The notes beneath the pieces are model-generated. The model made no database searches, was not told the origin of the DNA, and worked only from the letters and a program-made list of their open reading frames with translations. Shown one piece after another: positions 23,961 to 54,527 of a stretch of 64,000 bases of DNA; the first letter of the stretch is position 1; the number at the start of each line of letters is the position of its first letter. The stretch is taken from positions 7,592 through 71,591 of the IMG/VR virus record IMGVR_UViG_3300030329_001630. One strand, 5' to 3'. Origin of the DNA: a virus. Both the position numbers and the translations under genes were made by a program.

Positions 23961-23964
23961 ATCA

Positions 23965-24038: not shown

Positions 24039-24559
24039 CCTTTCTTCTTAGAGATTTTCCACAATTCAGTCCAAGCAGGAAGCCTAGCATTTACTAAATG
24101 GAACGCTGCTTCTTCAATAGGTACGCCAGATTCAATACAGCAAGCTACAGTATAATAAGAAGCATTAGGGTACAACATTAAGCCTTCATTATGTAAAAAT
24201 TTAGTAACTCTCTTTTCTGTTTCTTTTGTTGCACTACCTTCTAAGATACAATCAACAGCGAAGAATACAGAATCTGGTTCTCCTTTAACGAAAGAAGATC
24301 CCCAGCCCGGAATCTTGTAATGATTTAACAGATGGGTTTTGATTTCATTCTCGTAGTTTAATTCAGAGCACCTCGAAATAAATTTATGTGTTTGCATAAG
24401 AGGGGCATGAATTTCTCCAAGTGTAAGAAGCCCTCCTGCAATGGAGGTAAAGTAATCTTTTCCGACTTCCGCAAGCGCTGCTACCGAAGCCGCCGAAGCG
24501 TTATTCCTTAATGCAATTTCATTTTGAAATGAATACATTTCTTCTAATAAGGTGTGCAT
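24029..24559 (-). CDS. Truncated citrate-synthase-like (citryl-CoA lyase fold) protein, catalytic residues partly substituted
   Basis: NNASA, DYFTSIAGGLLTLGEIHAP, KIPGWGSSFVKGEPD, LYPNASYY and ARLPAW align in order with citrate synthase motifs NAST, G.LHGGA, GFGHRVY..DPR, PNVDFY and R..GW. Confidence 0.65.
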   Translation of the reverse strand: MHTLLEEMYSFQNEIALRNNASAASVAALAEVGKDYFTSIAGGLLTLGEIHAPLMQTHKFISRCSELNYENEIKTHLLNHYKIPGWGSSFVKGEPDSVFFAVDCILEGSATKETEKRVTKFLHNEGLMLYPNASYYTVACCIESGVPIEEAAFHLVNARLPAWTELWKISKKKGLR

Positions 24560-24578
24560 AATTTCTCCTTTCTGAGAA

Positions 24579-24650
24579 TACCCTCGGCAGGACTCGAACC
24601 TGCGACCGATCGGTTAAAAGCCGAATGCTCTACCACTGAGCTACGAGGGC
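24579..24650 (-). tRNA. tRNA-Lys (anticodon UUU)
   Basis: GCCCTCG-TAGCTCAGTGGTAGAGCA-TTCGG-CTTTTAA-CCGAT-CGGTC-GCAGGTTCGAGTCCTGC-CGAGGGT-A. Confidence 0.93.
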
Positions 24651-24757
24651 AGGTGCCCCTTGAGTGTTCAAGGGGCGGGGGGACATGGTGTAAGTTTTGA
24701 GGAAACTAGGCATCCCCCCTTTCATTATAAGAGGTTATGCACACCATGCCATAAAAC

Positions 24758-29843: not shown

Positions 29844-30067
29844 AGATATGGAGCAATACGCTCAAAAGATTTAAGATCCACTACGTCGTGGTCTCTCCAC
29901 AAGTCATCCAGATTCAAGGTGATCAAACTACAAGTGATCTTTGCTTCGGGCCGCCGACGCTGCTCTTGAGCAAGCCACTTGTGTTTTTGTTTGTTGATCT
30001 CACGAATTCTCTTCTTGATTTCTTCCCCGTCTCTTACTTCAATATTTTTCCTAGAACTAGCCATCAA
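29840..30067 (-). CDS. Hypothetical early protein
   Basis: ORF overlapping its neighbours. Confidence 0.5.
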   Translation of the reverse strand: MMASSRKNIEVRDGEEIKKRIREINKQKHKWLAQEQRRRPEAKITCSLITLNLDDLWRDHDVVDLKSFERIAPYL

Positions 30068-30407
30068 TCAAATCCCTTTCGTAATCTTCGGCTTCCATTC
30101 GTGATTGTTCCCAATCACTTACCATATTACAACAATAATCCACAACAAAATCAGTAACCACCTTGAGGCACCAGCTACTATAGCCAAGCTCCAAGGGAGA
30201 AGGAAACGGATTGTACTCATCGTGGTACGAGTGACGGAGACTATAGCAAACAGAATCTCCGTACTTGTTCATAACTTCTACTGCCAAACCAATCGTGATC
30301 ATCCCCGTAAGTTGTGACTCTTTGGCTATGTCAGCAATCTTCCAAATGTCCCAGTCATTCTTTTTGGTGATGAAATTAATAGCTTCACGGGCTTCGTCAA
30401 TATCCAT
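30057..30407 (-). CDS. Hypothetical early protein
   Basis: 116-aa ORF with GAAAGGA RBS. Confidence 0.6.
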   Translation of the reverse strand: MDIDEAREAINFITKKNDWDIWKIADIAKESQLTGMITIGLAVEVMNKYGDSVCYSLRHSYHDEYNPFPSPLELGYSSWCLKVVTDFVVDYCCNMVSDWEQSRMEAEDYERDLIDG

Positions 30408-30421
30408 TGGTCAAGTTCCTT

Positions 30422-30796
30422 TCAACAATCGTGTCTATTTTCGTCGGGGACAATCGCAAGCTTCCCGCCAATATTAGTGTCTTGGATGAGGTTCACATGG
30501 ATCATCCAAAGACGGAAAATGTTCGGCTTCCAGTTGATGAGATTGGGAACACTTCCCTGCGCGTGCTCACCCGGCGAGTCACCCCACCGAGCAGTGTACT
30601 CCCAGTTCTCGGGGTTACGCCACCCATAATATTCGTCGAACTGCCCTACCGTGTAAAAGTAAAGATCGTGCAAACGATCAGGGAACTCAGGGTCGAAGCT
30701 CACTCGACCAACAAAATGCTCTTCATACTCCGGCCACTCAGGACCGCCGTCAGGGTGTCCAAGAGGTTTGAACTGAGGGGATTTATCAAAACTCAT
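30422..30796 (-). CDS. Hypothetical early protein
   Basis: 124-aa ORF with AAAGGAG RBS. Confidence 0.6.
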   Translation of the reverse strand: MSFDKSPQFKPLGHPDGGPEWPEYEEHFVGRVSFDPEFPDRLHDLYFYTVGQFDEYYGWRNPENWEYTARWGDSPGEHAQGSVPNLINWKPNIFRLWMIHVNLIQDTNIGGKLAIVPDENRHDC

Positions 30797-30858
30797 CGAT
30801 CAAGTCTCCTTTCTAAAGTGAAAGGGCAGTTTATACTGATGCCCAGCAGTAGAATCAA

Positions 30859-31278
30859 TTAGTCACGGTTCTTCGCCTGCGAGGCAAAGTGCCTGAATTC
30901 TCCCTTTTCCAGAATTCGCCTTTCGGCGTAAGCCGCACCGAGATCGAAAATGGTCGAGTAGTGGGCATCGTCAGCCTCCTCAATTTCAGCACGAATGTCA
31001 GCCTGACGAACCCGAAGTGGCTGACCAAACTCTGCTGCGCGAGTCAGGTCACGGAGAACCTTTGCGGGCATCTGGACAGTGACCGTATCGTAGTCGGGAA
31101 CATCCTTAGTGATTTCACGCCAGTGGTTGCAGTTCTCGATGGCGAGCTTGAGGTATTCACGCTCGAAGATCAGGGCGTGAAAGCGTTCACGCGCTTCCCT
31201 CTGCTTTTCGTGGAGGCAATCGATCCGATCTTCAAAGGGATCGGCATTGGGATCAGAGAGATCAATCTTATCAGACAT
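30859..31278 (-). CDS. Hypothetical early coiled-coil protein
   Basis: 139-aa ORF with GAAAGGA RBS and GC-rich codon usage. Confidence 0.65.
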   Translation of the reverse strand: MSDKIDLSDPNADPFEDRIDCLHEKQREARERFHALIFEREYLKLAIENCNHWREITKDVPDYDTVTVQMPAKVLRDLTRAAEFGQPLRVRQADIRAEIEEADDAHYSTIFDLGAAYAERRILEKGEFRHFASQAKNRD

Positions 31279-31308
31279 GTTGTTTCCTTTCGAGAAACAG
31301 GGTTGGGT

Positions 31309-31578
31309 TTAGTTGGAGAGACGAGTCTCAATTTCGTGCATTTGCATCTTTTGAAGAAGCAAAGCAAACTCCTCGCCAGAAAGGTCATCTCGAAGGTCGA
31401 ACAGATCTACGCCGCTGACGAAGTCCGGTTCCAAGGGGAAGTTGCGATTCTTTACCGAACCGTGAAAAATGACCTCAGCACCGTTGACCTGCTGGATCTT
31501 GGCAGAGTACCAGTCACCAACGGGAGCTTTGAGCATACGACGAACGACGTTGAGGGCAGGAGTGTCACACTTTTGCAT
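31309..31578 (-). CDS. Hypothetical early protein
   Basis: Probable start MQKCDT at 31578 with GAAAGG RBS. Confidence 0.55.
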   Translation of the reverse strand: MQKCDTPALNVVRRMLKAPVGDWYSAKIQQVNGAEVIFHGSVKNRNFPLEPDFVSGVDLFDLRDDLSGEEFALLLQKMQMHEIETRLSN

Positions 31579-31878
31579 TGTTGTTGCCTTTCGTGAAAGA
31601 AATAAGCAGGGGCCACCATACGAACAGGTGTACCCAGAAATGCCGTGAGAGGGCCGGAGAGGCCGCCTGACGGACGAGAAGAACAAACAAGGGGGAACTG
31701 CCCGAGTCCGGGCGGGGGCCGCAGTCGGGATTCTACGGCTTCTGAGGGGTAGTTGTGCTTAAGGGGGAGGTGCCGAGTCCGTGGCTGCCCACGCGGAGGG
31801 CCTGTGATAGTGGAAGGAGGCGGACGGGGCTTGTACCACGGGGGTTGTAGCACGGGGAGGGGTGATGAGGTGATCATT

Positions 31879-32529
31879 TTAGGCCGTCACGTCAACAATG
31901 TTGTTGAGAGGGGTGTGATTGTGCTCATTTGCGGCTCGGTAGTCGCTCTCGAAGCGATTCAGAGCGAATCCCTTACCCCGAGCGGCGCAAAGAGTGGTGT
32001 GAGTACCGAACGGCTGCATCCCGTTGTCGGGCGTGTACGTGACACGCAGGGATCCGATCTCGAACCAAGCCGTGACCTTCAGGACACGCGCCTTCTCGCT
32101 CTTGGCGTAGAAGCAGGAACGAGCATGACACGGCAGAGCCTCACCATCAGCGAGGGTCCAGTTCTGGATCGATGTCGTGCCGTCAGCGAAGAAGATCTTC
32201 ACCTTCGACTTCAGACGCGAGTGGCTCTCCGCGTTGTTGACCGTCACGACCGTACCATCCGAGTGGGTGATAGTGGAGATGTCGCCATTGTAGTTGATCA
32301 CGCTGTCACGGGTCTCCGCGTTGGGTCGGAAGAAAGCCTCCAGCATGTCAGCCTCGTACTTGAGGTCGGACATGGTGTGGAACGAGATCAGATCATCGCC
32401 CCTCTTGTGGTAGGCGAAGCACTCCTTCTCCTCCGAGCGGAACTGCTTGCCCCTCTCGTACTTGATGAAGTCTCCGTTGGGAGTCGAGACGCTGAACGAA
32501 ATGGCTGACGATTTGAGACCAATATGCAT
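31879..32529 (-). CDS. Hypothetical early protein
   Basis: 216-aa ORF with GAAAGGAG RBS and GC-rich codons. Confidence 0.65.
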   Translation of the reverse strand: MHIGLKSSAISFSVSTPNGDFIKYERGKQFRSEEKECFAYHKRGDDLISFHTMSDLKYEADMLEAFFRPNAETRDSVINYNGDISTITHSDGTVVTVNNAESHSRLKSKVKIFFADGTTSIQNWTLADGEALPCHARSCFYAKSEKARVLKVTAWFEIGSLRVTYTPDNGMQPFGTHTTLCAARGKGFALNRFESDYRAANEHNHTPLNNIVDVTA

Positions 32530-32838
32530 TGGTGTGCTCCTTTCAAGAGCATGATAGAAAAAGGCTGCCTACGCGGATTCGTTGGCAACCGATGAAGGTG
32601 AAACGCTGCCTACGCGGAGGCTACCTCCGAGGACAGACTGATGATAGTGGATCAGACTCCTCCGAAGAGGGCTGATCGATCCTTGGAACCGGGTGAAGGC
32701 CGCATCCTTGCTTGAGATCATCCGTGATCTCCCTACGCTAGAGGCTCATCTCCTTACAGCATTGCGATGAATGCTAATAGTGTGAAAAAAGGAATCCATT
32801 CAAACGGGTTGATGCGCTCTTCCATGAGGCACCTCCTT

Positions 32839-32872
32839 AAAAAAAGCAATGCCCTCGTTGGAGGGCACGCTT
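32839..32872 (-). terminator. Rho-independent terminator
   Basis: AAGCGTGCCCTC-CAAC-GAGGGCATTGC followed by a T-run. Confidence 0.7.
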
Positions 32873-32878
32873 CATGAC

Positions 32879-33082
32879 TCACCAGACAGGAGGGATTTCC
32901 TCCTCCTCAGTCAAGCAAGTAGCAAACGTTTCATCCAACTGCTTGTTGAGAGTGGCACGGAAGTTCTCACAGTCTTCTACAGTGAGCTTCTTTTTTCTTG
33001 CCTTCTGCTTGAGAAGCTCCGTAAGAAGAGAAAACTTCCGAGAGAACAACTCAATAGCGTTGATGGTTTTCATGTCAATCAT
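32879..33082 (-). CDS. Hypothetical early protein
   Basis: Start MIDMK at 33082 with GAAGGA RBS. Confidence 0.55.
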   Translation of the reverse strand: MIDMKTINAIELFSRKFSLLTELLKQKARKKKLTVEDCENFRATLNKQLDETFATCLTEEEEIPPVW

Positions 33083-33347
33083 CTGAGTTTCCTTCATTTA
33101 TCGAACTTTCAAGAACGTAGTAAAGAACAGCCATACTAAACGCAGTGAAACCAAAGCAGGTAAGATATCCAATCATCGGTCGTTGTATCCAATGAACAGA
33201 GGTGCGAAAGCCATAACGGCACAAACAACAATCAACAGCGTCAACATGATGCAAGCATACATGATGTGCTCCTTCCAGAGCGAGGTGATAGTGGAAAGAC
33301 AAAACAAGCCGTCATCCCCGGTAGGGGATGGGCTTGTGCGTGTGCGA

Positions 33348-33773
33348 TTAACGGGTAGGTACTGCGCGATCACCCGCGTACGAATCGGTGCTGAAACGAC
33401 CGTGGCTGGTGACTGAGGCGAGATCGGAGAACGCCTTCTTAAGCTCCAAGTTGATCTTATCGATGTTAGCACCGGCTTCTTCGATTCTCTCGGTAAAGAC
33501 CTGAAACATCTTGTCGTACTGATAGTCTTCCTTCGTCCACTTCATGTATTCATTGCCTTCCCTCTCGGCAGTGTCAGTGTCGCCCGCATCAAGAGCCGCG
33601 TACATCGCGCGGCCGTGAGTCTTAAGGCCCTCTGAGATCGCGGGCTTGGAGGTCGTGTGAGTCTTACGCTGTTCCACGAACACATCAAAAGCGGCCTCGC
33701 ACTCAGCCTTGCGGGACTGAAGAGAAACGATGAGTTCGAGAACAGCACGGAGAGTGAGGGTAACATTAGACAT
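33348..33773 (-). CDS. Hypothetical helical protein, probably the first early gene
   Basis: 141-aa ORF with GAAAGGA RBS, immediately after the putative genome end. Confidence 0.65.
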   Translation of the reverse strand: MSNVTLTLRAVLELIVSLQSRKAECEAAFDVFVEQRKTHTTSKPAISEGLKTHGRAMYAALDAGDTDTAEREGNEYMKWTKEDYQYDKMFQVFTERIEEAGANIDKINLELKKAFSDLASVTSHGRFSTDSYAGDRAVPTR

Positions 33774-33789
33774 GGTGTGATCCTTTCAG

Positions 33790-33860
33790 ATCGGGGGGTA
33801 CGGGGGGAAAGAGGATACGTTTCCTCTTATCTCCCCCTCTGTAAATTTCCGACCCCCTAA
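33790..33860. other. Probable junction of the physical genome ends (terminal-repeat region)
   Basis: G/C homopolymer-rich tract (minus strand GGGGGTCGGAAATTTACAGAGGGGG...CCCCCCGTACCCCCC) with an internal hairpin. It marks the switch from late genes to GC-rich small early genes. Confidence 0.45.
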
Positions 33861-34351
33861 TCGATTTTCCACCCACCTAACACAAGGGAAAGGTCGGTTC
33901 CACCGACTGTATTATCACCATCAAGATCCCAAACAGAGTTTTCCTTACCCCAGTCATTCAAGAGATCACTTAAGTCATCAGCAGTAAACTCTGTTTTAAT
34001 AATATAAAATATAAAATACCGGGGGCACTGCGTAGGGTTATCCTGCAAGTCAGTGCGGTTCCGCTCCCAGCTAACGAAGAGATGATCGTCAAAGATCTGT
34101 ACTTCATCAAACGAAAGCATGGGTTGGCCCGGATCTGAAGAGATCCAAGGACCGGCCAAGCGGCCCGGTACAAGATCAAAAGTGTAGTTTATACAAGCAG
34201 TTGTATTCTCGTCCCAATGCAATCGGGCCTCACCCTTGTACACAGTACGTGGACCTTCTTCGTAAACTTCATAATATATTTCTGAATTATCATCCCAAGA
34301 ATACTCAGAAAAGAACAACGGGAGCGTAGCCAGAACAAGGTACTTAATCAC
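33857..34351 (-). CDS. Putative secreted protein with a C-terminal dockerin/EF-hand-like module (Phycisphaerae-type)
   Basis: GTG start at 34351 with AGGAG RBS and hydrophobic N-terminus. C-terminus ADDLSDLLNDWG...WDLDGDNTVGGTDLSLVLGGW. Confidence 0.65.
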   Translation of the reverse strand: MIKYLVLATLPLFFSEYSWDDNSEIYYEVYEEGPRTVYKGEARLHWDENTTACINYTFDLVPGRLAGPWISSDPGQPMLSFDEVQIFDDHLFVSWERNRTDLQDNPTQCPRYFIFYIIKTEFTADDLSDLLNDWGKENSVWDLDGDNTVGGTDLSLVLGGWKID

Positions 34352-34387
34352 GATAGACTCCTGACAGCGGTCCAAGCCGCAGTAAAA

Positions 34388-37600: not shown

Positions 37601-40600
37601 AAGAACGTACCACTACGCTGGCCGCCGGTTGGGCCGACCGTAATGTTTGCTCTTTTCATGTTAATAAGGGCGTGCTGCAACGAATCAAAATCTCCGGCTA
37701 AAGCCGTACCTAACGCATGGATAGTAGGCATGTTTGTAGTAAACGCACCACTTGTAAAATAACTTGTTGCGTCAGCAGCAGAAATTAAAGCGGTGGTTAA
37801 AACCGTTTGCGGCACTGATGCATCCGTCTGATAAGCAAAGTTTCTAGCACCGAACGGAGAAGCCAGCGTATCTGTTATTCTAGCAACTTCGTTAGGACTA
37901 ATAAGTCCCAAAGCCATGCGCGAAATAAACGTAGAAGCCGGAGTTTCAATTCTATTACCTAACCCTGCTGGAATCAGCTTTTCTTCTGCTGCTCGGAGGA
38001 TAACTGCTCTTTCCATATCTGCATCATTTTCGGTCAGTCTCTTAATTGTTTCTAAATCTACCATACCGGTTTCAGCATCTCTAGCCTCTTCAGCAATTTC
38101 CCGAGCTTTCGTATCGTATTCAGCAGCATTTCTTCTACTTGCCTGAGCAGCCGATGGGAATTCCATTCCTCTAGTAAGGTCATCCATAGTTAGAGGATCA
38201 ACACCATCTGGAAGTTCTAAGGGATCGTGATCGGTGCCATACATTATGCGATTTTCTTCTTCCCTCTTCCTAATAATAGGAGTTCGGGTCGGTTGCATTC
38301 TACCAGAAAGAGTCTCAAGAGGAGCCGAGAATAATGCATCCGCATCTCCTAAGTTTAAAATCTCGGTTATTTCTCTTGCAGCACTAATAAACGTATAGCT
38401 ATCTTCAATTCCGTCTGCTAAGTCCTTACTGGCTTTGATGGTATCAAAAGCAGAAGGAATCTTTTTAATAGCTGAAATAGCAAACATCGCCCCAAACAAC
38501 TCACTTGTAGCAACGTTTAAATCGTCCTTAGTAAGAAGCTCTTCTCCTAATTGTTTAAGTCTAGCGATGTATTTTGCATCTGTTGTGACTTCTTCACCGT
38601 GAATCTTTTGTTCGGCTGTTTTGACACTTTCCAGCTCTACGCGCCTAACTTCATTAATAAAAGCTCTTTTCTGCTCCGTATCAAGACGAGTACCTACGTG
38701 GTGCCCGATTTCTTCAAGAATTACGGCAGCAGGCCCAAGCTCAACTTCCTCTCCGTAGAGACTACGTAATGCCGAATGAACGGACAGGACGTTGGTATTA
38801 GGATCGTAATGACCTGCTGATTTTAAGTGAGGCGTTACGTTTAACTCGAAACCGCCTGAATCTCGGTGAGAAACAAACAATTTGAGTAGGCTTTCTTGAG
38901 ATGTAGTAAAGAAGGCTAATTTAAGAATTATAGCGTCGTTGTTGTTTAGCGTTCCGTTAGCAACAAGCCCGTCCCAGTAGTTTCCTACAGTTTTATGTAC
39001 TGCGCTTTGTTTTTCAAAAGCACTTGCTCGATGGTGAGCCGTGTTTACTTTTACTTCATTACCGTCTTTCATTGGAGAAGTAGGAGCAACTTGTTCTCTA
39101 ATCCTTATTTCATCTACTGCTTGCATTGCACCTTCTGTTCTAGGTGAGTAGTAAATATTATTAACTTCTCTTGAAACTTCCCGTGCTACTCGCCATGACT
39201 CAGCAAAAACAGCTATTCTAGAATTGTGGTTATAAACGTCAGTAATTTTAGCTCCTTCAAAAGCTGTACCAGCGAAGTCATTAAGATTCTGTGTTATTTG
39301 ACCATCAGAATTCCATTTTCTGTTTATAGCGAATATCATTTTGCTTAACTCGGCCCACTCTTCCTCAATCTCAGCCTTAAGCGGCATTCCGTTGGATCTA
39401 TGGTTTGGGTTAAACAAGTAATCTTCTTGTTGTCTCAGATTAATGTAAGTTTCTTTCGGTGCTTTGTTGCCGTCCGTAAGGAAATAAGCTTTAATAGCAA
39501 GCCCCCACTTATAGGAACCGTCCTTGCTTAACGCTGTTTTATAGGATTTAATGTTGGTAATAATACCCTCGTCCCAACTCAACCCAGCTAAAAGCTCATC
39601 ACCCAGAAGCTCAGTAGCCTGCTTCTTGTACTTCCACGTATCTTCTTTACTGTTAAGCTCTAAGAACCGAGCGGGTCGAGCCTTTCCGTTTACAATTGTC
39701 TTGTACCTGTTATCTGATACAAACTTTCTAGTTAAATTTCGTTTTTTCATGTTTGCAGCTAACTGCTCAAAGCCAATAGAAAGAGCGGCAGCATTTTCTC
39801 TGGCTTTGTTAATACTTAAACCAGCGTATTTAGTAAACGGATCGTATCCTCCCATGTTAGAAGAACGTTCAGCGTTCATAGGAAGGTCTCTCTTAAGTAA
39901 GGAAGCCAACAGCATTCTGTCAACCACTCTACTATTTTGGGTAAAGTTCAATGCTTTAATCTTATCTTGCATAGTAAGTCTAACAATACCCTGACCTGTA
40001 ACCTTGTGAGGATAGATTAAATTACCAAAAGCATCAACGAAAAATCTCTGATCTCTATCATACTTTATTTGATTTATCTTAGCATTCATCGCCTCTTCAA
40101 AAGTTTTACCGGGATAATTCTTACTGATAAACTCATCAATGTCTCCCAACTGCTCTGATAAGTTAGCCATAACAGCTTCTTTGATTGCGGGTTTAGACAT
40201 GTAAGCGATTGCAGAGTGGTTATCTCCAAACTTAGTTACAACGTTTTCTTCGCCTTCCTTGAAGTAACGAAGAATGTCCTCTACGTCTGCCTTATTGAAA
40301 GCTTCAAGGATGTGCTCATAATTCTCGTTCCTTTTCCTAAACTCTATTCCCTCGTCTAAGCCTTCTTGTCCTCTTACTTTAAGATCCCACCATTCTACGA
40401 ATAAACTGATGTGATTTGCTGTAATCTCATCCTCATCAATCACACCATCAAGCATCCTCTTAACAGCCTGATGCCACATTCCTACTTGGGCATAATTAGT
40501 AAAGAAAAGACCAGACGAGTCTTTAGTTTGTACGCTGGCTGGGGCGTGATAGAGAGTAGAGGCTTCTTTTACTGTCACAGGGTTTAACGGAGAATCAAGA

Positions 40601-43600
40601 ATAATTGTACCCGGTACTTCAGCTTCTCCCATTAACCACGCGGCCATGTTTCCAGCATCAAGGTTTTTAAGAGCAGTGTTTTCCATTGCTTCACCAAATG
40701 TTTTACCATGACCGATGGTTTTTAACCTATCGCCGGTAAAGCTAAGGGGAGACCAAATGCCATTCTTGGCATCGTCTGCCCACCCACCGTCAATAGTTAA
40801 AATCTCTGAGTATCTCAATTCTGCATCAGCCTGTACTTCTCGTATGTTCTCGATAATTGAGAGATACTCAAGATCCTCAAGGGCTTCTTTTTCTGCTTCT
40901 TCGGGTGAATAATCCCGAGTAAGTAATCTTTCTTCTACTTCCCTTTTTCGTGTATTAGCCATAGACTGGAGCGATGCAATATCAGACAACATTTTGTTCT
41001 GTTCTCGTTCTGCATTTAAGTGACGATAAATCTGATATACTTCAAAGTATTCTCCGTTTCCTATGTGGTCATTCACGGCTTTTATATTAACCTGATTAGC
41101 CCAAGTCTCTAAAGAGGCTTTCAAAGATTTAGCCATAATCTCAGGACTGGGTGCTGACTTTAAGTCCCCAAACATTCTCTCTGCAAGAGGAATATCGGTT
41201 CCCTTGCCTTGGTAAAGAGGAATTGTAGTAAGATCTTCTGGGGGAACAGTCCTTAATTCTTTAGCGGTGAAAACAGGAGGTCGTTGAGTTTTATCTAATT
41301 CCTCGCTTCGATCCCTAAGAGTAATAAAATCAGAAACTTCTTGAGATCTGTTTATCTGTGACTTTCTTAAAGATGGAACAGGCGAATCTTTAAACGGTCT
41401 TAAAATAGTCTTGGGGAGGTGACCTAAAATATGAGGCATTCTTCCCGTTGACATTACAATATCCCCGATCTGTTCTTTCATGAAATTACCGATGTTGTCG
41501 GGTCTTTCTTCTCTAGCTGAATCAATGATTTCGCCCACAACACGAAGAAGTTTAGTAGCCCTTTTTAATTTGAACTCTTCGTCGTTTAACTTATTTTTAA
41601 TATTTGTATCTGTTGGATTCTCGGCAAGCTGTTGCTTAAGACCTCTTACCCTTACTGCTAAGTTTTTTACTTCTATGTCGTATTGATTAGCTAAAATCCT
41701 TGCTTGAGTTCTAAGATCATCCCCCAGTTTTGAGGTCTCTTCCCACGCAGAATACCATCTATCTGCTGTTAAGTCTTCAAACTCGTCTCCAAAACGTTTA
41801 TTTAAGAGCGGGGTAATATCGTAAATTTCGCTAAGTTCTTTAATTACTTGGAGAATTGTCCTATCCCTTACTTGTTCGTCAGTAAGGTCACCTTTCGCAA
41901 TTCGTCCCACACCAATAGGAGCATCTGTACCTAAAGTACGGTGCCCTGTACTAGGAGTAGGATCAAGGGCACTGGTAGCAAAGATACGACCCTCAAAAGC
42001 TAGGTTAAGTCTTCTAAATACTTCGTCTCCCCCTGCTGCAAACTTAAACAAGGGCGACATAACGGCTTTTAATCTGTCTTTTAGAGTACCGTCTCCAATA
42101 TCCCCAGTTACAATAGTAAGGAACTTATCCAGTTCTGCTTCATCGAAACCATAACCAGTCCTGCTATAGCTATCCAAGGAATTAAGAACAGCGTTGTCAT
42201 CCATGTATTTAATAAAAAGCTCGTCAATTTGTCTTTGTTTTTCGGTTGCGTTTAAGCTTTTATTATTTACGATTTTCGTAACTTGTGTTTGAATACCGTT
42301 TACTTCCTTTTCCAGCAATTTAGCAGCTTGGTTTCTCTTGCCTGAGTCTAAGGCATGTAATTTATTCATTACAACAGTAATCATTTCATCTTCTGGATCA
42401 ACTGATTTCCCTAAAATTAAACCGCCACGATTAATCTCTGCTAAATCTTCAAACTTCATTAAGGATTCTGCTGCCGGTACATCTCTTTGAGCTTTAGCAA
42501 AATTATTAAGAATGTTACCTAATTCTTTGTTACTTATTCCGCTGGTAGGACCGTATACGTTGTCTTTAATCCAACCCAAAGATGCGTGAGAACTGCGATC
42601 AGCTAAAAGATGGCCCCATAATTCGGAAACACCACCGATATGCTCTCGCCAGTCTGCGCCTAAAGCTCCTTGTACAATACCTTGGTACTGTTCTTCTACT
42701 AATACATCTTTAAGCTTTGCAATCAGAGAGTCACGACCAGCCCCGTAAGAGTCTGTCATAACCGCAGATTTAAACATAGCCTTAGCTTCACCTTCGTCAT
42801 CAAACGCTGTTACAAGTTTACCGAGATTGTCCCAAGCTTCTTTATTTACACCCGCTGGAGGCGTACCCTCAAGATTACGCATAACGCCCTTTGTAACTTC
42901 GTTATAAACAGTGGTTTGTTCCCTCGCCCACCAGTCCTGTAAGTCTTTTCTGAGTTGAATTCCTTCTTCGCCTAAACTATCAGCAATTTCCCCAAAAAGT
43001 TTATTAATGCTTTCTGGATTTGCTCTACTGCCCATAACTAAAGAAAGCATAATGTTTGCACCGGATGCGTCTGCATCCACCTGCATATCATCAGGGAAAA
43101 ACATTTTTGTTACAATGTCTTTATCGTCATCGGACAGGTCATTAAAGTGTTTTGCCATCCACCCAACAAACTCTGCTTCAGTTTTAGGTAAAGTAGTTTT
43201 GTACTTCTCTTTAATCGGCCTAAGCTTATTTTTTAAAAGTTTATTAAAGTTTGCGCGTCCAAGTTCTACAAGGTTATCGTAACCGAACTCTACTTTATAC
43301 ATGATGTTTAACGCATCTCCTAAAGAGCCAGTCATTGAGGCTAACGTTGAGAATCCAAGGCCAATACCACGGAAAGGGTAAACAATGTTTGGCCGTTCTG
43401 TGGTTCCGGCGTTTAAATCATACGCAAAGTCCCAATGCGGTGTTCCCGCTGCATCGTCCACTCTTCCTAACTGAGTTCTAAACATAGTTGATACAGAGTC
43501 GTGAACCGTTAACATAAGGGCCGGGGTGATATTCCTCATCCTCACTTGATTACGTAAAATAAGATCATCAATCGATGTCCTCATTGTATCGTCCGGTCCT

Positions 43601-46600
43601 TTAACCGACCATTGGGGAATAAACCGGAAAGACTCGTTTTGAATAGAAGACCCTCTAATGGGGACGGAATCAATATCCTTAGATAAGTCTCTAATAACTT
43701 CTTCTAATTTATTAATATACTCAGCGTCATTCCCTGCTTCCCTCGCTGCTGTGTATTTCTGTACAATCTGATCTAAGATATAAGCATTTCTTGCTTGTTC
43801 AAAGTTAGCCTGCACCTTTTCATCTGTATCAGCCTGAATATAAATACTTCTGTCTCGCGCTGTGTCTAGAGTTCGCGCTGCGACTACACCCTTTTTACTC
43901 GGCTTTATTTCAGTAACAGCGTTAATTTTCTTAGTGTAACCGTCGCCTATAATAGAGGCTACGACAGCCGTTGCTGCTCTTTGCGGCCCGATGTAATCTC
44001 TTGTGCTACCTAACTCAGAAAAGTCGTTTAGCTCATCCTTAGGGGGTAAACTATTATTAACGTATTCTAAGATAAGCTTAGGAACACTATCGTCGCCCGT
44101 TTTAAGGGGTACACCGCCTGTGTCAATAAGTGTTTTCAGAGCTTCGTGGCCTCTCGCGCCCTCGTTATTATAGATGCTTGTTAATCTTCTTACCAGACTA
44201 GTGTTAAATTCATTTTTCCAATCCTCTTGCGTATAGCCGTCTACATCGGCTCCCTCATCAGCAGCGTATCTTTCATTGTTTTGGCTGAATTTTCTAGCTG
44301 CCCAAAGGGATTTTCCTTCATCCTGTTGATCAAGGTGATTTAAAACATTTCTGATGTTTCCTCCAGCAGTATAGACAACTTCGCCGTTTTCTGTACCAGC
44401 GATTGCATGACCAAAACGATTATTAATGCTGTACTTCATTCCTGCATTAACGTAATCTTTCATTTCGTCATTAACACGGCCTAACCTGTTGATTAAAGCG
44501 TCTAAGACTTCTCTACCGTTATACACACCACGGTTAGAATACTGAATGATATCTGGCAGATTAATTAAAAAGCCGTACCCCTTTTCAGCCGTTTCAATAA
44601 TACTCAATAAGTCTAATCTGCTAATAGAAGCATCGATCTCTAACCCGGACTCTGATAAAACAGATCTAACTGTAGAGTGGGCGTGGAGATGTGCCCGAAG
44701 CATAGTAATGATTTTAAGAAGAGGTTCTGCGTGTGCTTCAGAAGATCTTAATTCGATAGCAAATCTACCTAACTGTCTGTCAATCCACTGCTGCCTTATA
44801 GTGCTTTCCCACTCGTTTTTAGCAGCCGTCGTAAAGATATCAAATAGTCTTCTTTGTTCGTTTTTTGCTACTCTTAGGTTTTCTGCGTCAGTCGCACCAA
44901 GTGTTTCCCCCTTTTCTCTAGCCACCCTTTGTTTTCTTGAAAGCCTCAAACGTGTTTCAACAACATCGGAGTACTCCTTACTTGTGTGGGCTTTCGTTCT
45001 TACCATCCGTCTAATCATAGCGTCAGAGACGGTTGGTGAGTCAGCAGCGTCCTCGATGAGACCCCTAAGGTGGGCTTTCGCAAACTCTGACATCTGACCA
45101 AGATCATCATACGGTTCAAAGTCTGCGAATAAGCCCTTAGTACTATCGTCTGCACCTTCAAAGTATTCTTTTAACTCGTAAGCTTTTTGTTCTTTAAGTG
45201 TTCTATTGGCTTTTTTTGCTCTTGACTTAAGACCTCTTCCCCACTTGACCCCTACTCTTTTAGCTATAAGATCTAACACAGGGACTGATAAATCATTAAC
45301 AACGCTGCTAAAGTCTTCATCACCGATTCTTCTTAAAGTCTCTGCTAAGTCAACTTCTGATCGGGCAATTACTTTAGCAACTACATTCGGGTCTGCGCCG
45401 TACACCCACGTAACATTAGGATTGTTACGGTTAACAGGAGTAGCTTGCTGTACTTTATTCCAATTATTCTCCAGTGTTTTTATTTCTTGGTAAGTACGCA
45501 TAATGACAGCTTCGTTGTGTATCGGTGCGCCTTCTTCTTGTGCATCCAAAAGTCTTTTCACAAAGCCCAGTTCTGCGAGGAAGGACGATTCTGACTTAGA
45601 TACATCTTTGGTAGAAAACTCTTTTACAAGAATATCTCCCATTTCTCGTGTCATGTCGCTAAGTTTTTGTTTGGTGTATTCTACTGCTGCCGCTTCTTTA
45701 TTTGGATTAAGAAGATAGTTAATAAACTCTCTTACGTCCTCTGATGTTTCCTGTGCGCTGGCGATCCTTCTTAATTCTTTTTCAGTAAAGGCGTTCCTAA
45801 CCCACAGTTCTCTTCGAGCCACAAGCGATACTGGTGTTTCAGGGTCAAGAAGATACGAAAGAATAGGGCGCATTCCTAACTCGTTCGGTTCTCCGTATAA
45901 GCGACTACGAACAGTTTGCCGCCTGTACCATGCTACCCATCTCCATGCTTCATTCGGGTTTTTCTGGAAAAAGTTTGCAACGTTATGTGCAAGGTTCACA
46001 TCCGCTAAAAGAACGTCAGATTCTGCCGCCTTTAAGTCGTCTTTAACTTTTTCTACAGGTCTAAGATCATCAACTTCTTCAGTTGGAATTTGTTTAGCTT
46101 GAAGCCCTTCTTTTTGTTTTTCAAGCTTATTAGCTTTTGCATTTAAAGCGCTTTTCTTTGTGTTCCATTTTTTTAGAGCAGCTTTTTCTTCTTTAGTTCT
46201 GTCTTTAGGCTTTTTGCCCATAATTTCCTGAGGTTTAGCTTCCTCATGCTCTTCTCTGGCGGCTCTAGTTTGAGTAAGGTCTTCCTCGATTGCCTCAATG
46301 CGGTCTGCGTTTTCTTTAGCTGCTGCTTCAGACTGTGTTTTTCTTTCCAGTGCAGCTTCTGTTTGTTTTAGTTCTTCTTCGAGTGATGCTACCTTTTCTT
46401 GCGTCTGTGCCTTTTGTTCTTCGCCGCCTCTTACTGTTTCCACAAAAGAATCACTTAGAGGCATGTTTGAATCATCGTCTCTAAGGGGTCGTGATAATTC
46501 CTCTTCCATAATTGCTGTGGGTTCTTCGGATTCATACTGTTTTGCTGCTAAACGAATATAGGTTTTTTTAGCAACACTGTATTTTTCAAGGATATTCTCA

Positions 46601-48923: not shown

Positions 48924-51900
48924 TTATCGCGTGTTAGTATCGCCTAAAATAAATCTATTTACATTTGTTGCCATAGTGGCATTTCTTTCTTGTTTTTCAA
49001 TACTTCCTCCGAGTCCGGGGATAATTAAGTTCCACGGAAATCCGAGGGAGGGATAGTGATCAAGCAAGTTTCTTGATTGTCCTCCGCTTAATGCCATATA
49101 TCCATTAGAGGCATAATCAGTGTTAATCCACTCCTTGGGGTGGGCAAATGTTCGGGATACGGCCCAACTAGGATGGCCCTCCCACTCAGGGTTAGATCTG
49201 TCGTTCAATCGCAACCAGCTTGTATTTTCTGATGACATTCGGGGATAGGCATCACCGCCTTGGTAGATACTCCCCTTTTGGCCTGTCATCCACTGAGTAA
49301 AATCTACAACGGCATTTAGAGCAGGTTCCACATTTTGCTTAACATCGTAATTAATCCTACCTAAGTTTCTTTTCTGGCTTTGGTAAACCGCCGCATCATA
49401 TAGTTTTAAAACCTCATCAGGGATAGTAAAAAATCTTTTTGCTTCTGAAGACGCTACTTGAGAAAGATCTTCTGGATTTCCGACAGAAACTTTACCTACA
49501 TAAGTGACGTTATCTCCGGCCTTACCTCGGCTAAGAACGGCCTTAATTCGAGGGCGGACTATAACATTTGTTTTTTGGTCTAACCCGGCTTCAAACATAT
49601 CAGTTTTAATAACTTCTAACAACCCAATGACTGTTTTTCTACGCTCTTCGGGAGTAGCTTCCGCGTATTCTTCAGTTTGAGCGTAGTCTTGTAAAGCTCG
49701 AACAGCTAATTCATAACCAATCATCTGCTGCTCTTGCGAAGCACGGTTTGATCCGTATTCTGTTACGTCATAAGCTGCTAGACCTTCGCCTGATAAGGGC
49801 GATCCACCTGTCATAACTCCCGGTATACTAGAACGGACAGTTGTATCTTGTGTAAAGACTTTAGTTGTACCAATGGTATCAGTTTGGCTTTTATATGTTT
49901 CTTGATATTTTTCAGCACCACCTTGGTAATTAATTCCCGCAGACATTAAAGAAACGGACATTTCTCCTGTTCCTAACTCCATTTGAGAAAGTTGTCCCTC
50001 TAGTCTTTTTCTACCAATTTCGCTTGTAGCTAATCTTGCCCCGGCGGGAACCGGAGACTTCGACGCTGAAAAATGATCTCCTCTTTCTCTACTAGCTAGC
50101 TCTAATTTCGGATCGAAGAACATATAAAGAGGATCTGTCATTACTTGGTTTGTTTCAGAGTCAAGAGGAGGATCTAATACCCTAAAAGTGGGGTGAGCTT
50201 CAGACACTTCTTCTGCATTTAGGGGAATAATTGAAACACTAATTTCAAGATGTCCTTCCTTAATATCCTTAATTATTGCTTCCGTAAGTTCGTGATGATT
50301 TCCTTTATAGTACTCTCCATTTTTTGAGGCAAACCACTTAGCTCTAGCGTCTGATCCGGGTGTTCTTTTTCGGAACACTCTACGAGTCGTATCTCCTTCA
50401 GAACCCACAACACTTGTATTCCATGTAGGCACTAATTGAATTGTAATCTGAGAGCGATTAGGTAAAGAAGAAACTATTGTTCGACCTGTATCATCGTCTA
50501 GGATTGTTTCTATTGGGCGGCCTCCCCCCATCGTATGATTATAAATGGCTTTAACTTCGCTTACATCATCAAATCCATCTCTTAGTTCGGCGTTGGCTCC
50601 ATCGTGTACTACGTCTAAAAGAGCTTTCATAGTAAGTTCAGATAAAGTATCTACCTGTTGAGGAGACGGTCCTACGTCTCCTTCTGGTGTAAATGAATGT
50701 AAAAGTTGACTAACAAATTTATTGGCTTCTCCGCGATGAGCGTCTTCATTGCCGTAATAAGGCATATTTGTATTCCAATGATGGGAATAGTCTACATCGC
50801 TGTCCTTCACCTCACCTCGGCTTGTGCTAAGGTGTGGTGCCAGCATTCCCATGTTGTTTGGTCCACCAAGAGTCTTATACAGATATCCGATGTTTGCTGA
50901 AGGATTAGATACCCTCATATCCGCAATAAAAGCCGGATTTGGTGTTAAATGCGTAGGAGGATTCTCCATCCAATTAAAGAAACGAATATGGTTATTAACA
51001 TACGTATCTCTTTGTGGTCCTATACGAGAATCGCTTTCATTCCCCTCTAACCTAATAGGCACAACAGAGGTTGATTCGATTAACATCTTGTCAACAATCA
51101 TACTTCTCCATTTTTCAGAAGCGTCCGGTGTTCTTGATCTTTCGTAAAATCTGTTAAAGAAAGCTTTATCATTATCTGAATTCATGCCCATTAACGTAGG
51201 TAAAATACCCGTAAAAAATGTACGCTTAAGTTCTCGGGGCACATAAGCTATACCCTGATCATTAAAAGAATTAGTCAGTCTTCTTACGATTTCAAAATCA
51301 TTATCTAAAGCAGGATCATCGCCTCCTTCTAAATAAGCGGCTAAATCTTTATCCTCAACGTTGTTAATTCTACTTGCAATACCCTTTAAGTGATTATCCA
51401 ATACTACAGTTGTTTGAGGATTTCTTGCTGATCCTTCACTCATTACAACACTTTCAACAAGAGATTCAAAAACATCGGGGTTATCAATATTAAGTTTAGT
51501 TTTATCATCGCTTTGTACAAACAAAGGTTGACCGTTTTTAGTTCGTGCAGTTAAAGCTGTAGTTCGTAAATCTGTTTTTAAATTATCTAAGATTTCTTGC
51601 GCTCTCGTAAGCTCGACTAATAATTCGTCTTGACCTTGGAATTTATCTTGGCCTTCTCTTGTCGAATCATCAATTGCTCCTTGAACAGAAGTTAAATAAT
51701 CCATGTTAGGGAAATACGTAAAATCGCCTGCTTCGGTAGTTTCTTGGTCGGGTACAGAATATCCATGCTTTTCTAAAATAGCTGGAAGAATCTCAAATTC
51801 GCTAATCTCAGCAACAGCGTTTCTTACCGATGCGTTAATTTCTTTTGGCACGTTATTACGTGACCACGACATAAACTCATAAGGATAAGAATTCTCGGTA

Positions 51901-53810
51901 AAGGAAGTACTTACCCCCAACTGCCAACCTTCTATAAGACCGGTTGATCTTCGTTGGTCTCCTTCTCTTACTTCCGCTACCGTTTCTGGGGAAGTTGCTA
52001 AAAGTATTCCGTTATCTTGGGCTATTTTTCGTACATCTTCAGCCGCTCTTTGTTTTTCTTCTGGAGAAGACTGATCTGGGTTAGCTACTAAAACGTTTCT
52101 TGCCATTGACAGTTTTTGCCGCCGGTCAGTTTCCATTTTTGTGAGCATACCTGTTCCAAAGTGAAACATATAATCCATAGGCGAAGGGGAGTAAGCCGCG
52201 TTTATTAACCTATTTTCTAGACCTTCTAAAATAACAGACGTATTATCTACAGGTCCGTCCGTTAGCTTAGTCAAAATATCTACCTCATTCCCCTTTGCGG
52301 GTGCTTTTCGCTCTGTATCTACCTCGGCCTCTATAACCTGAGTAGAAACTTCTGCATCATCCGCTGATGGGGTATTCACCGCTGGGTTTCTGGCTTGTTC
52401 GTAGGAATCCATAAAAATTCCCCCGCTTTGGGCATCTAATCCAGCCGATACTTCGGCTCGTACAGTAGCGTCATTGGCTTCTACAATAATGTTACGCCAA
52501 GAGTTTATACGCCCAATATAGGCAGCCGCATCTTCTTTCGGAATTGGATCTCCCTCAGGAATAGTCGCAATTTTCTTAGCGTCTTCTACTTCTTTTTGTC
52601 TTTCTGGAGAAAGACTTTCAAACCACATTTGAACAGGCGCAGAGTTCCAATCAATATTATTAATTTCTTGACTAAGGATATTACCATCCACCGTTTTTAA
52701 AATATAAGCCTGATGTCCGCCTAAAAGTTTACCTACTTGTCCTAATTTATAGAGATCTGCTCCTCTTTCTCCTGTGGACTCCGCACCACGGGCAATAAGA
52801 GATCTAATAGGATTTCTTGTTTTGTAGGTGTCACCGAACGTCGTAAGCCAGTTTTCTTTAAAAACCGTTTCAGAAGGAGTATTAATAAGATTATCTAATT
52901 TAACAGCAAAAGTAATTTCTCTATTTGTGACTTCACGTTCCAGTTTCTTATCAGTAGCAAACTGGGATGCCATGATTTCAATATCTTGGTAATAAAGGCT
53001 ACCTTCGTCAGGTATTTCGTCTTCTTCAAAAGAATTTAAAATCCAGTTTCGTACAAAATCCGGGGTCTCTAAATCTTCTGGTTCTAATCCGGGTTCTTGT
53101 TGAAGAAGAACTAAAGCCCTTTGAGCATTTAACTGATTTGTGGTCCTAACATTTTCTGTTGCTTTTACTGTAGCTTTATCTACTTCTTGCCCAATAAGCT
53201 CTTTAATCCCTTGTGCATATTGGGGATATCTTTCCGTTAAAGAATCTAAAGCATCTTCCCACATCATCATTTGAGATTCTGCTGACCTATCTAAAGTATT
53301 CTTTTTAACCTCAGCAATAGCATTAGAAATATTTTCCGTATCTGTTAAAGCCTCACTACGGGTTCCATAAACAATTGACTGTATTTCTGCTTTACTTTTT
53401 CCACCAACAGTTACAGCCTTATCTTGTACACCAGCCCACAGGAGTTTCTTTTCCCAGTCTTTTTCTTTTTCGGGTATCTTTTGAGCGTCAATTTTAGCTT
53501 CTTCAATTCTAGCAATTTCTCTTTCTCTCTCGTCTTCAACAAGGGCTGAATCAAATTGTACTTTTTTTACTTTTGCGTAGTCTTGAGTACCCGTAGTAAT
53601 ACCCTCTGCTGCTGCTAAAATAAGATCAACTGGAGTAATATCATCGGTGGCAAAAGCAAGAGGGGAATCTTTTCCAAAAGTTGTTCCTAAGTTTTCTGAT
53701 TGGGCGACTCTTTTTGGTGTGATTAACTCTCTTGTTTGCATTTCTTGGTTAAAAGGTAAATTAGCGTCGATTCTACCTGTACCTTCTTCTCTTTGCTTTT
53801 TAATAGGCAT
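48924..53810 (-). CDS. Large internal virion protein (T7 gp15-like position), 1628 aa
   Basis: Long, helical, acidic ORF between the gp14-like gene and the giant gene. AGGAG RBS. Confidence 0.65.
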   Translation of the reverse strand: MPIKKQREEGTGRIDANLPFNQEMQTRELITPKRVAQSENLGTTFGKDSPLAFATDDITPVDLILAAAEGITTGTQDYAKVKKVQFDSALVEDEREREIARIEEAKIDAQKIPEKEKDWEKKLLWAGVQDKAVTVGGKSKAEIQSIVYGTRSEALTDTENISNAIAEVKKNTLDRSAESQMMMWEDALDSLTERYPQYAQGIKELIGQEVDKATVKATENVRTTNQLNAQRALVLLQQEPGLEPEDLETPDFVRNWILNSFEEDEIPDEGSLYYQDIEIMASQFATDKKLEREVTNREITFAVKLDNLINTPSETVFKENWLTTFGDTYKTRNPIRSLIARGAESTGERGADLYKLGQVGKLLGGHQAYILKTVDGNILSQEINNIDWNSAPVQMWFESLSPERQKEVEDAKKIATIPEGDPIPKEDAAAYIGRINSWRNIIVEANDATVRAEVSAGLDAQSGGIFMDSYEQARNPAVNTPSADDAEVSTQVIEAEVDTERKAPAKGNEVDILTKLTDGPVDNTSVILEGLENRLINAAYSPSPMDYMFHFGTGMLTKMETDRRQKLSMARNVLVANPDQSSPEEKQRAAEDVRKIAQDNGILLATSPETVAEVREGDQRRSTGLIEGWQLGVSTSFTENSYPYEFMSWSRNNVPKEINASVRNAVAEISEFEILPAILEKHGYSVPDQETTEAGDFTYFPNMDYLTSVQGAIDDSTREGQDKFQGQDELLVELTRAQEILDNLKTDLRTTALTARTKNGQPLFVQSDDKTKLNIDNPDVFESLVESVVMSEGSARNPQTTVVLDNHLKGIASRINNVEDKDLAAYLEGGDDPALDNDFEIVRRLTNSFNDQGIAYVPRELKRTFFTGILPTLMGMNSDNDKAFFNRFYERSRTPDASEKWRSMIVDKMLIESTSVVPIRLEGNESDSRIGPQRDTYVNNHIRFFNWMENPPTHLTPNPAFIADMRVSNPSANIGYLYKTLGGPNNMGMLAPHLSTSRGEVKDSDVDYSHHWNTNMPYYGNEDAHRGEANKFVSQLLHSFTPEGDVGPSPQQVDTLSELTMKALLDVVHDGANAELRDGFDDVSEVKAIYNHTMGGGRPIETILDDDTGRTIVSSLPNRSQITIQLVPTWNTSVVGSEGDTTRRVFRKRTPGSDARAKWFASKNGEYYKGNHHELTEAIIKDIKEGHLEISVSIIPLNAEEVSEAHPTFRVLDPPLDSETNQVMTDPLYMFFDPKLELASRERGDHFSASKSPVPAGARLATSEIGRKRLEGQLSQMELGTGEMSVSLMSAGINYQGGAEKYQETYKSQTDTIGTTKVFTQDTTVRSSIPGVMTGGSPLSGEGLAAYDVTEYGSNRASQEQQMIGYELAVRALQDYAQTEEYAEATPEERRKTVIGLLEVIKTDMFEAGLDQKTNVIVRPRIKAVLSRGKAGDNVTYVGKVSVGNPEDLSQVASSEAKRFFTIPDEVLKLYDAAVYQSQKRNLGRINYDVKQNVEPALNAVVDFTQWMTGQKGSIYQGGDAYPRMSSENTSWLRLNDRSNPEWEGHPSWAVSRTFAHPKEWINTDYASNGYMALSGGQSRNLLDHYPSLGFPWNLIIPGLGGSIEKQERNATMATNVNRFILGDTNTR

Positions 53811-53822
53811 TGTTGATCTCCT

Positions 53823-54527
53823 TTATTGTTGAATAGTGATCGGTGTCCAGCCACCGCCGCCACCGCCGCCGCCAGCCATCCCTCCGCTATATTGCTGGGC
53901 AGCATTCAAAGCACCGTAAATGCCTCCTACCATAGAAATTCCTTGAGCAGCACCTTTAATGCCTCCCATCATGGTAGCCATACCGACATCTTGCATCTGG
54001 GGAGGCAGGCCCGGAATAAAGGCACCCATCGTAGTGGTAGATAAATCTGTGCCTTGTCGGAGATTATTTTCATAGTTTTGTTTTAAAGCTCTCGATGCGT
54101 TTATCTTAGAGAAAAACTCATTCTTCCAGTTTTCTCCTCCCTGTAATTCCATTTGCTTTTTAATCTGCTGGGCAGTACCAGAGGATAAACTCATTTTAGC
54201 TGAAAGCTGTGAAGTAACAGATGAGTTAATAGCTTTTTGCTGTTTACTTAATTGTTTAGCTCTTTGTTCAAAAGTTTTTGCTAAATCAATTTGCTGTAAT
54301 GCGTAATTTCTAGTTGATGCTTCAAATAAATGTCTATTTTGGGCATTTCTTGCTGCGTTTTTTTGTGCTACCTGTACCTGCTGCTCCCCATAACGCCAAG
54401 CCTCTAAAGCTGTATTATGATTATATTGCCCCATTGCCGCCGCGTTTTGAGATTTTGCAGCAGAGTTAGCGGCATATGCGCCGACACCTGCCATAGCTAC
54501 CGCACCAACTGCTAATGCTACACCCAT
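53823..54527 (-). CDS. Internal virion protein (T7 gp14-like)
   Basis: Ala/Gly-rich hydrophobic N-terminus, Gln/Ala coiled coil and Gly-rich hydrophobic C-terminus. Confidence 0.7.
   Translation of the reverse strand: MGVALAVGAVAMAGVGAYAANSAAKSQNAAAMGQYNHNTALEAWRYGEQQVQVAQKNAARNAQNRHLFEASTRNYALQQIDLAKTFEQRAKQLSKQQKAINSSVTSQLSAKMSLSSGTAQQIKKQMELQGGENWKNEFFSKINASRALKQNYENNLRQGTDLSTTTMGAFIPGLPPQMQDVGMATMMGGIKGAAQGISMVGGIYGALNAAQQYSGGMAGGGGGGGGWTPITIQQ

Follow-up and report, generated by a model that had tools for sequence, protein, structure and literature searches.

A motif C-like segment encoded upstream of motif A in the putative virion RNA polymerase of a T7-like podovirus lineage

The subject of this study is a giant open reading frame (ORF) in a 64,000-nucleotide (nt) stretch of viral DNA (bases 7592 to 71591 of the 71,591-base IMG/VR record IMGVR_UViG_3300030329_001630, which is rated 100% complete; hereafter the window). 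Its product carries the core of an RNA polymerase (RNAP) of the T7/N4 type in which motif C seems to be displaced upstream of motif A, giving the order C-A-B-T, where T stands for the T/DxxGR element, in an otherwise conserved, probably active and injected enzyme. Based on sequence comparison, we give this reading a probability of about 0.5. The broader proposal is more tentative, namely that we are looking at a natural RNAP of the T7/N4 superfamily with a sequence-permuted palm, carried in an injected protein of a previously undescribed T7-like podovirus lineage. Coordinates of all features are listed in Table 1.

Conservation was read from two alignments, one of 11 full-length giants (the window protein plus 10 relatives) and one of the polymerase domain with 19 rows, in which the relatives are 19% to 37% identical to the window's domain at the amino acid (aa) level and two sets of rows are near-duplicates (L005/L009/L011 and L002/L008/P0004). 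Motif A (DADASG, aa 1942 to 1947) reads D1942-A-D1944-A-S-G-A-N and thus has the SG.Q/N-like sequence of T7-like RNAPs, and motif B (KAMFKSAVMTDSYGAG, aa 2040 to 2055) has the pattern [RK]-x3-K-x7-Y-G. Invariant across the 19 rows are H1800, D1801, D1942, A1943, D1944, G1947, Y1999, K2044, M2048, Y2052, R2305, and R2321, and P1793, G1845, G1849, and P2283 are invariant in both alignments. Compared by hhalign with an alignment of 9 virion RNAPs (vRNAPs) of the Schitoviridae, the A-B region matched with 85% to 93% probability (E 4e-7 to 6e-6), and with an alignment of 8 T7-like RNAPs it reached 79% to 90% (E 1.7e-6 to 1.5e-5). N4 E557-A-D559 aligned with D1942-A-D1944, and N4 KNPLT..YGSG with K.P.MT..YG of the giants. 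Judged by these profiles, the region from motif A to motif B (aa ~1935 to 2116), in which the catalytic and nucleoside triphosphate (NTP)-binding residues are invariant, is homologous to the RNAPs of N4 and T7.

The candidate motif C had been noticed in a first-pass annotation, which pointed to LMLTVHDSV upstream of motif A (located at aa 1795 to 1803, nt 43492 to 43518) and put its VHDS (aa 1799 to 1802, nt 43495 to 43506) some 140 aa before motif A; we measured 143 aa to DADASG. An HD in one sequence proves nothing because 0.23 words of the form [VILM]HD[SACE] are expected in the giant protein from composition alone. That figure is what favors a functionless chance look-alike, a caveat that the same annotation had raised. 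Among relatives, however, the HD falls in a single alignment column in all 11 full-length proteins and in all 19 domain rows, as part of T-[IV]-H-D-[AS] and always 120 to 143 aa ahead of motif A, and it is therefore not a chance occurrence; we regard this explanation as refuted for practical purposes. The comparison of homologues proposed in the annotation also separated VHDS from its second candidate, LDSY, the Asp of which occurs in the window protein alone. Between aa 1700 and 2560, no acidic residue other than D1801, D1942, and D1944 is invariant.

Profile comparisons connect the HD to motif C. The palm-like segment around it (aa 1700 to 1870) matched the N4-like family with E 0.006 to 0.011, and a longer alignment placed aa 1700 to 1825 on N4 residues 826 to 977 (E 0.006). 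For aa 1745 to 1935, the top match was motif C, in register, in both the N4-like family (E 0.039) and the T7-like family (E 0.062), with the HD falling on N4 F-D951 and on T7 IHDSF; none of 40 column shuffles reached the score of this segment in either family. True motif C of Schitoviridae vRNAPs is itself [IV]HDA in 3 of the 9 sequences, as in GVHDAILVGL compared to TIHDAIFVGL of the giants.

No HD is found at the usual place of motif C, as had been claimed: aa 2201 to 2213 read NGIQTQVTKIVNN, and the domain alignment holds no invariant acidic residue, and thus no motif C, in aa 2053 to 2560 after motif B. The HALDS from which this place had been reckoned, as a look-alike of NxxHSxD, makes a weak anchor, with H2182 and D2185 varying freely in relatives. 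NSLDSY, which the annotation had placed about 55 aa after HALDS, does exist (aa 2240 to 2245, ~58 aa), but we rejected LDSY as a conserved catalytic site, D2243 being Asn or Ala in every relative; it may be the remnant of a motif C that decayed at its canonical place, or it may be unrelated.

What does follow the fingers is a segment resembling the T/DxxGR element. The best hhalign match of aa 2281 to 2333 (FFR.LAIS.EGR.FV….D…DK..R….P.G) is the T/DxxGR region in both families, with 1 of 30 shuffles reaching the score in each; the T/DxxGR-like part proper is aa 2301 to 2305, and the first of the structure models described below predicts strands at the segment. R2305, K2318, and R2321 have the spacing R-x12-K-x2-R of N4 R424, K437, and R440, although K2318 is Thr in the window protein (Lys in most relatives). 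According to a passage of PMC4496689, K437 and R440 of N4 bind the initiating nucleotide. E2303 lies at the hairpin turn in most members and is His in the group of L003, L004, L005, L007, P0007, and P0008. Upstream, at the place expected for PF00940-type RNAPs (~110 to 135 aa before motif A), the alignments show no conserved Arg of a T/DxxGR; a TQLGR 9 residues after the HD is confined to the window's protein, its R1813 having no counterpart in relatives. A second downstream candidate, GRMP…G.LP at aa 2484 to 2503, was rejected: it matched N4 (0 of 30 shuffles) and not T7 (19 of 30), and its Arg is unconserved.

Since the HD matches motif C and the T/DxxGR-like segment comes after the fingers, the recognizable elements are ordered C-A-B-T and not T-A-B-C. 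Among the explanations that the first-pass annotation had offered, the displaced motif C or permuted palm is thus the best supported, yet not as a simple circular permutation, because the T/DxxGR-like segment follows motif B. The giant ORF would then be the counterpart of N4 gp50 in a lineage of ~70-kb T7-like podoviruses that is so far known from metagenome and viral-contig records only. The second carboxylate for metal binding would come from D1801, next to D1944, D1942 would act as E557 does in N4, and the beta segment with the T/DxxGR…K..R signature (R2305, K2318, and R2321) would have been placed after the fingers, such that a palm assembled from C-A-B-T elements may retain the usual active site with altered connectivity. 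The giant enzyme might start early transcription from the injected DNA, with the phage's T7-type RNAP taking over later.

Several observations weigh against this reading. The matches of motif C and T/DxxGR are individually weak (hhalign probability 0.2% to 6%), and the segments were partly chosen by eye beforehand. In an alternative hhalign register, the motif C strand of N4 (FDG) falls on the Gly-rich block at aa 1844 to 1851 and not on the HD. The spacings are near canonical and would fit an unchanged topology too (D1801 to D1944, 143 aa, compared to 135 for N4 R424 to D559; K2044 to R2305, 261 aa, compared to 281 for N4 K670 to D951). Further downstream, D2676 and D2710 are invariant in the 11-protein alignment, and a segment at aa 2781 to 2806 weakly matches the T7 family (E 0.002 to 0.004; score reached by none of 30 shuffles), which complicates a simple order of elements. 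Searches with the whole giant protein found nothing relevant in Pfam or PHROGs, and those against the PDB gave two unrelated matches with phmmer (E 0.51 and 0.93) and nothing at E ≤ 10 with hmmsearch. AlphaFold2 modelled aa 1700 to 2560 from 15 sequences with a mean predicted local distance difference test (pLDDT) score of 63 (model 1) and aa 1745 to 2345 from 18 sequences with a mean of 53 (model 2), all motifs scoring below 50 in both; the two models are of low confidence at the palm and do not tell which Asp lies beside motif A. Foldseek against the PDB returned nothing at E ≤ 0.001, with the N4 mini-vRNAP structure 2PO4 at rank 12 (E 1.8). In favor of a polymerase core, by contrast, a VIA-align comparison of model 1 with 48,161 chains, resting on its confidently modelled part (the fingers) only, ranked human mitochondrial RNAP (POLRMT) first (Z 8.5) and T7 RNAP second (Z 8.1), the latter over 99 residues with a root mean square deviation of 3.0 and with model residues 297 to 417 (aa 1996 to 2116) on T7 568 to 689.

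The near-canonical spacings speak for an explanation that we consider unlikely, in which connectivity is canonical and the chemistry has been relocated: the HD strand would be the N-terminal palm hairpin, which usually bears T/DxxGR, and the GR hairpin would sit at the normal place of motif C, without any permutation, and catalysis, if any, would be carried out in a rebuilt site by the pair D1942-x-D1944 together with D1801 or some other residue. The TQLGR after the HD would agree with this, as would E2303, which in most members takes the position at the hairpin turn that D has in N4 FDG. However, neither is conserved among the giants, profile comparison likens the two segments to the opposite motifs, and a mirror-image exchange of roles about the motif A strand would be hard to square with chiral substrates. 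A little less likely still is a catalytically dead, RNAP-derived module kept for nucleic-acid binding or translocation in the ejection machinery, an option that the first-pass annotation had also listed. The canonical place of motif C without a conserved acidic residue, the complete T7-type RNAP that the phage already encodes, and the failure of any family model to reach its threshold would all be expected of such a module. Yet N4, too, has a T7-like RNAP in addition to its virion RNAP, as described in part of PMC4496689. Moreover, the residues for metal and NTP binding (D-A-D, K and Y of motif B, and the HD) and M of motif B are invariant at 19% to 37% identity, which is what purifying selection on catalysis is expected to produce, and we therefore disfavor this option.

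The remaining explanation, which we consider improbable, places motif C far downstream behind a very large insertion, either at W2707..D2710 or near aa 2781 to 2806. It draws on the invariance of D2676 and D2710 and on the likeness of aa 2781 to 2806 to the PNFVHSxD helix, which normally precedes motif C in T7 RNAP. This likeness is absent with the N4 family, and after the segment there is no HD or conserved Asp, the columns of the T7 hairpin aligning to a gap. D2710 precedes the HSxD-like segment instead of following it and has polar flanks that are not strand-like, and T7 568 to 689 runs continuously onto aa 1996 to 2116 without sign of the implied insertion. This structural match puts T7 up to residue 689 at aa 2116, and we accordingly discarded an extended low-threshold alignment that had set GNMAAWL (aa 2750 to 2756) on AMNWL of T7. 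Tandem duplication of the core found no support either (hhalign of aa 1745 to 2270 against aa 2271 to 2900, best E 0.2).

Two side observations concern the downstream parts of the giants. At aa 2707 to 2710 (40771 to 40782), ~660 aa past motif B, a W..D is invariant that has the form [GQ]W[AGS].D and reads WAHD in some relatives. In the C-terminal third, E-E-x-G-H (LEEIGHHVG) is invariant at aa 3396 to 3400 (38701 to 38715) and followed by an invariant Glu at aa 3467. The C-terminal C1 domain of N4 gp50 has a zincin-like HExxH (LIHELVHAS, aa 2228), and the EExGH of the giants may be related to it, Glu having taken the place of the first His; when the EExGH region was compared with N4 gp50 by hhalign, the HExxH was not recovered.

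The relatives were gathered by several searches. Exhaustive phmmer against 1.8 billion representatives gave 12 matches at E ≤ 0.001, nine of which are giants of 3971 to 4707 aa, and a word-based protein search contributed one further giant relative (its "longer" mode returned only a fragment of the window protein). A further 6 viral and 8 metagenome loci, several of them the same contigs, came from scans of contigs, and a second viral-contig scan hit the same 6 contigs. Left out of the alignments were L006 (99.7% identical to L002), L010, L012, L014, L015, and L025 to L030 (the same contigs or sequences as loci in use), P0003 and P0006 (pieces of the window protein itself), and P0014 (a 227-aa fragment). 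One relative, P0002 (4668 aa), is named "DNA-binding protein H-NS" by a source, probably a spurious transfer from a Lys/Glu-rich coiled-coil stretch near aa 830 to 960. Outside this set, no match to the domain came up by tblastn among 50,697 phage records. The window protein matches neither PF00940 (gathering score 22 bits) nor a vRNAP model in Pfam; 3 of 15 members have sub-threshold PF00940 matches in the motif B region (16.4 to 20 bits, best E 2.8e-5), covering profile positions 117 to 198 only, and the HD segment of 8 members had no PF00940 match. Look-alikes in the ESM Atlas are PF00940 and N4-vRNAP clusters, with a score of 0.89 that lies below the tool's 0.9 line and can serve as a lead only.

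Cysteine is absent from all 11 full-length giants, from the two genes' products upstream of the window's giant (1628 aa and 234 aa), and from N4 gp50. Ten other, cysteine-containing phage proteins that we checked have 0.4% to 2.5% Cys, and at a background of 0.5% to 1.3% the probability of finding none in 4735 residues is ≤ 5e-11. A passage of PMC3821669 describes the absence of cysteine as an established property of the injected N4 vRNAP (gp50) and takes it to be required for its passage. An ejected virion protein is the most likely reading of the giant sequence because of this lack of cysteine together with the position of the gene.

This position is in a T7-like genome, the minus strand of the window carrying all long ORFs. 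By PHROG and Pfam scans, we identified T7-like proteins of the portal, scaffold, capsid, and tail tube, the large terminase, DNA polymerase, primase-helicase, exonuclease, ribonucleotide reductase, and thymidylate synthase. Portal, capsid, tail tube, DNA polymerase, primase-helicase, and RNAP belong to T7-like PHROG families and share one strand, which is not the layout of a Schitoviridae-type genome. The terminase is followed by ORFs of 163, 234, and 1628 aa without family match and then by the giant gene. The 234-aa (53823 to 54527) and 1628-aa (48924 to 53810) neighbors, both without a match in the PHROG and Pfam scans, are candidate co-ejected proteins. The two related genomes that are near complete, 72.9 kb and 68.1 kb in length, likewise encode a canonical T7-type RNAP. 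That of the window is at best ~24% to 29% identical to any RNAP among the 50,697 phage records, and the whole lineage is therefore distant from described Autographiviridae.

Table 1. Features of the giant ORF and its surroundings, with nucleotide positions counted from the first base of the window
Feature	Position in protein (aa)	Position in window (nt)	Strand	Remarks
Giant ORF	4,735 aa	34693..48900	minus	Lacks cysteine; probable virion (ejection) protein with polymerase core
Palm-like segment	1700-1870	43291..43803	minus	Resembles C-terminal palm of N4 mini-vRNAP (residues 826-977); encoded before motif A
T-V-H-D-S (candidate motif C)	1798-1802	43495..43509	minus	H1800-D1801 invariant in 19/19 rows; aligns to T7 IHDSF and N4 [IV]FDG/[IV]HDA
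Gly-rich block RGIGLGFS	1844-1851	43348..43371	minus	G1845 and G1849 invariant
Motif A (D1942-A-D1944-x-x-G1947)	1940-1950	43051..43083	minus	Invariant; aligned to N4 and T7 motif A
Fingers, including Y1999 and motif B (K2040, K2044, M2048, Y2052, G2053)	1996-2116	42553..42915	minus	hhalign and VIA-align
HALDS	2182-2186	42343..42357	minus	Look-alike of NxxHSxD; not conserved
LDSY	2242-2245	42166..42177	minus	Family consensus [AS][LFY]N[SA][YLF]; Asp in window protein only
T/DxxGR…K..R-like beta segment (FRRLNLAFEGR…R)	2294-2321	41938..42021	minus	R2305 and R2321 invariant; after fingers
HSxD-like segment P..Q..DS..L	2781-2806	40483..40560	minus	Weak likeness to T7 PNFVHSxD helix; no HD after it
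Upstream neighbors	1628 aa and 234 aa	48924..54527	minus	Both without cysteine; candidate co-ejected proteins
Canonical T7-type RNAP	859 aa	21182..23761	minus	PF00940 6e-64; DFRGR, motif B, HSID, and IHDSF in usual order

Some features of the window concern the gene for the T7-type RNAP and possible regulatory sites. Just upstream of this gene in the direction of transcription, tRNA genes for Leu (TAA), Arg (TCT), and Lys (TTT) are found at 23875 to 24651 on the coding strand. Directly downstream of it, a 205-aa protein (20060 to 20677) has weak matches to sigma-factor PHROGs and a weak, below-cutoff match to a LuxR-type helix-turn-helix domain (GerE, E 3.7e-4). The region at 30000 to 34000 has a GC content of 0.51, compared to ~0.40 to 0.46 elsewhere, with short ORFs overlapping on both strands; those tested at 33348 to 34375 yielded no families. 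The 10-mer TCCACTATCA, which resembles the CACTATA core of T7-type promoters, has six exact copies, all on the coding (minus) strand (11249, 26757, 31805, 32268, 32642, and 33286), and four of them lie in the 31.8- to 33.3-kb region downstream of the giant gene, their flanks not being conserved. Three minus-strand copies of CCTCCGCGT[AG]GGCAGC are located at ~31784 to 31799, 32564 to 32579, and 32605 to 32625; one of these copies is a hairpin with a 5-bp stem and a 3-nt loop (GGAGG-tag-CCTCC), a shape known from N4 early promoters. Hairpins of N4 early promoters are mentioned in part of PMC4496689.

Among known systems, N4 gp50 of the Schitoviridae (mini-vRNAP, PDB 2PO4) is the closest parallel. 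Like the giants, it is a huge single polypeptide without cysteine that has a central T7-like polymerase core with [ED]-A-D in motif A and K..PhT..YG-like sequence in motif B, and its phage encodes a second, T7-like RNAP. In size and central position of the polymerase, the giants resemble N4-like vRNAPs, and the lack of cysteine and the gene neighborhood suggest that they are packaged as well. They differ from gp50 in their order of elements (C-A-B-T versus T-A-B-C), in length (4.7k versus 3.5k aa), and in the C-terminal EExGH in place of the HExxH of the C1 domain, and no similarity is detectable outside the A-B core. The phages differ too: here, T7-like structural and replication modules share one strand, and the second RNAP is a single chain of 859 aa, whereas that of N4 is the heterodimeric RNAPII according to a passage of PMC4496689. 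The neighboring genes invite comparison with podovirus ejection proteins (T7 gp14 to gp16; N4 gp52-gp51-gp50), which likewise come from genes that grow in size, the largest being last, and are cysteine-free (PMC13434306); the neighbors here lack a sequence or family match, and the analogy would be one of position and composition only.

With T7-type RNAPs (PF00940) and POLRMT, the giants share the fingers fold, motif B, and a motif A Asp followed by SG.N/Q-like sequence, but they stay below the PF00940 cutoff, lack an HD downstream of motif B, and show no conservation of a T/DxxGR upstream of motif A. In family-A and T7-type polymerases, the order of motifs is regarded as a constant hallmark, and we found no description of a permuted palm in T7/N4-type or family-A polymerases in the open-access literature. 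An internally permuted palm was reportedly described by Gorbalenya et al. in 2002 for birnavirus and permutotetravirus RNA-dependent RNA polymerases (RdRps), which are likewise right-hand polymerases with motif C encoded before motif A (C-A-B). These enzymes belong to another superfamily, however, being RNA-dependent polymerases of RNA viruses with a palm of the RNA recognition motif type, whereas in the giants, known from sequence, a second element (T/DxxGR) seems to have switched sides as well.

If the reading of a displaced motif C is correct, a working C-A-B-T enzyme would show that the T7-type palm tolerates rewiring like the RdRp palm, would offer a natural test case for how a two-metal site can be built, and would be the first case of a permuted palm in polymerases other than viral RdRps. 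The failure of the Pfam and PHROGs family models to detect the giant proteins would be accounted for as well. For the biology of these phages, it would mean that the N4 strategy, in which a polymerase enters with the virion, has a second and independent case, extending injected single-subunit virion RNAPs beyond the Schitoviridae to T7-like phages.

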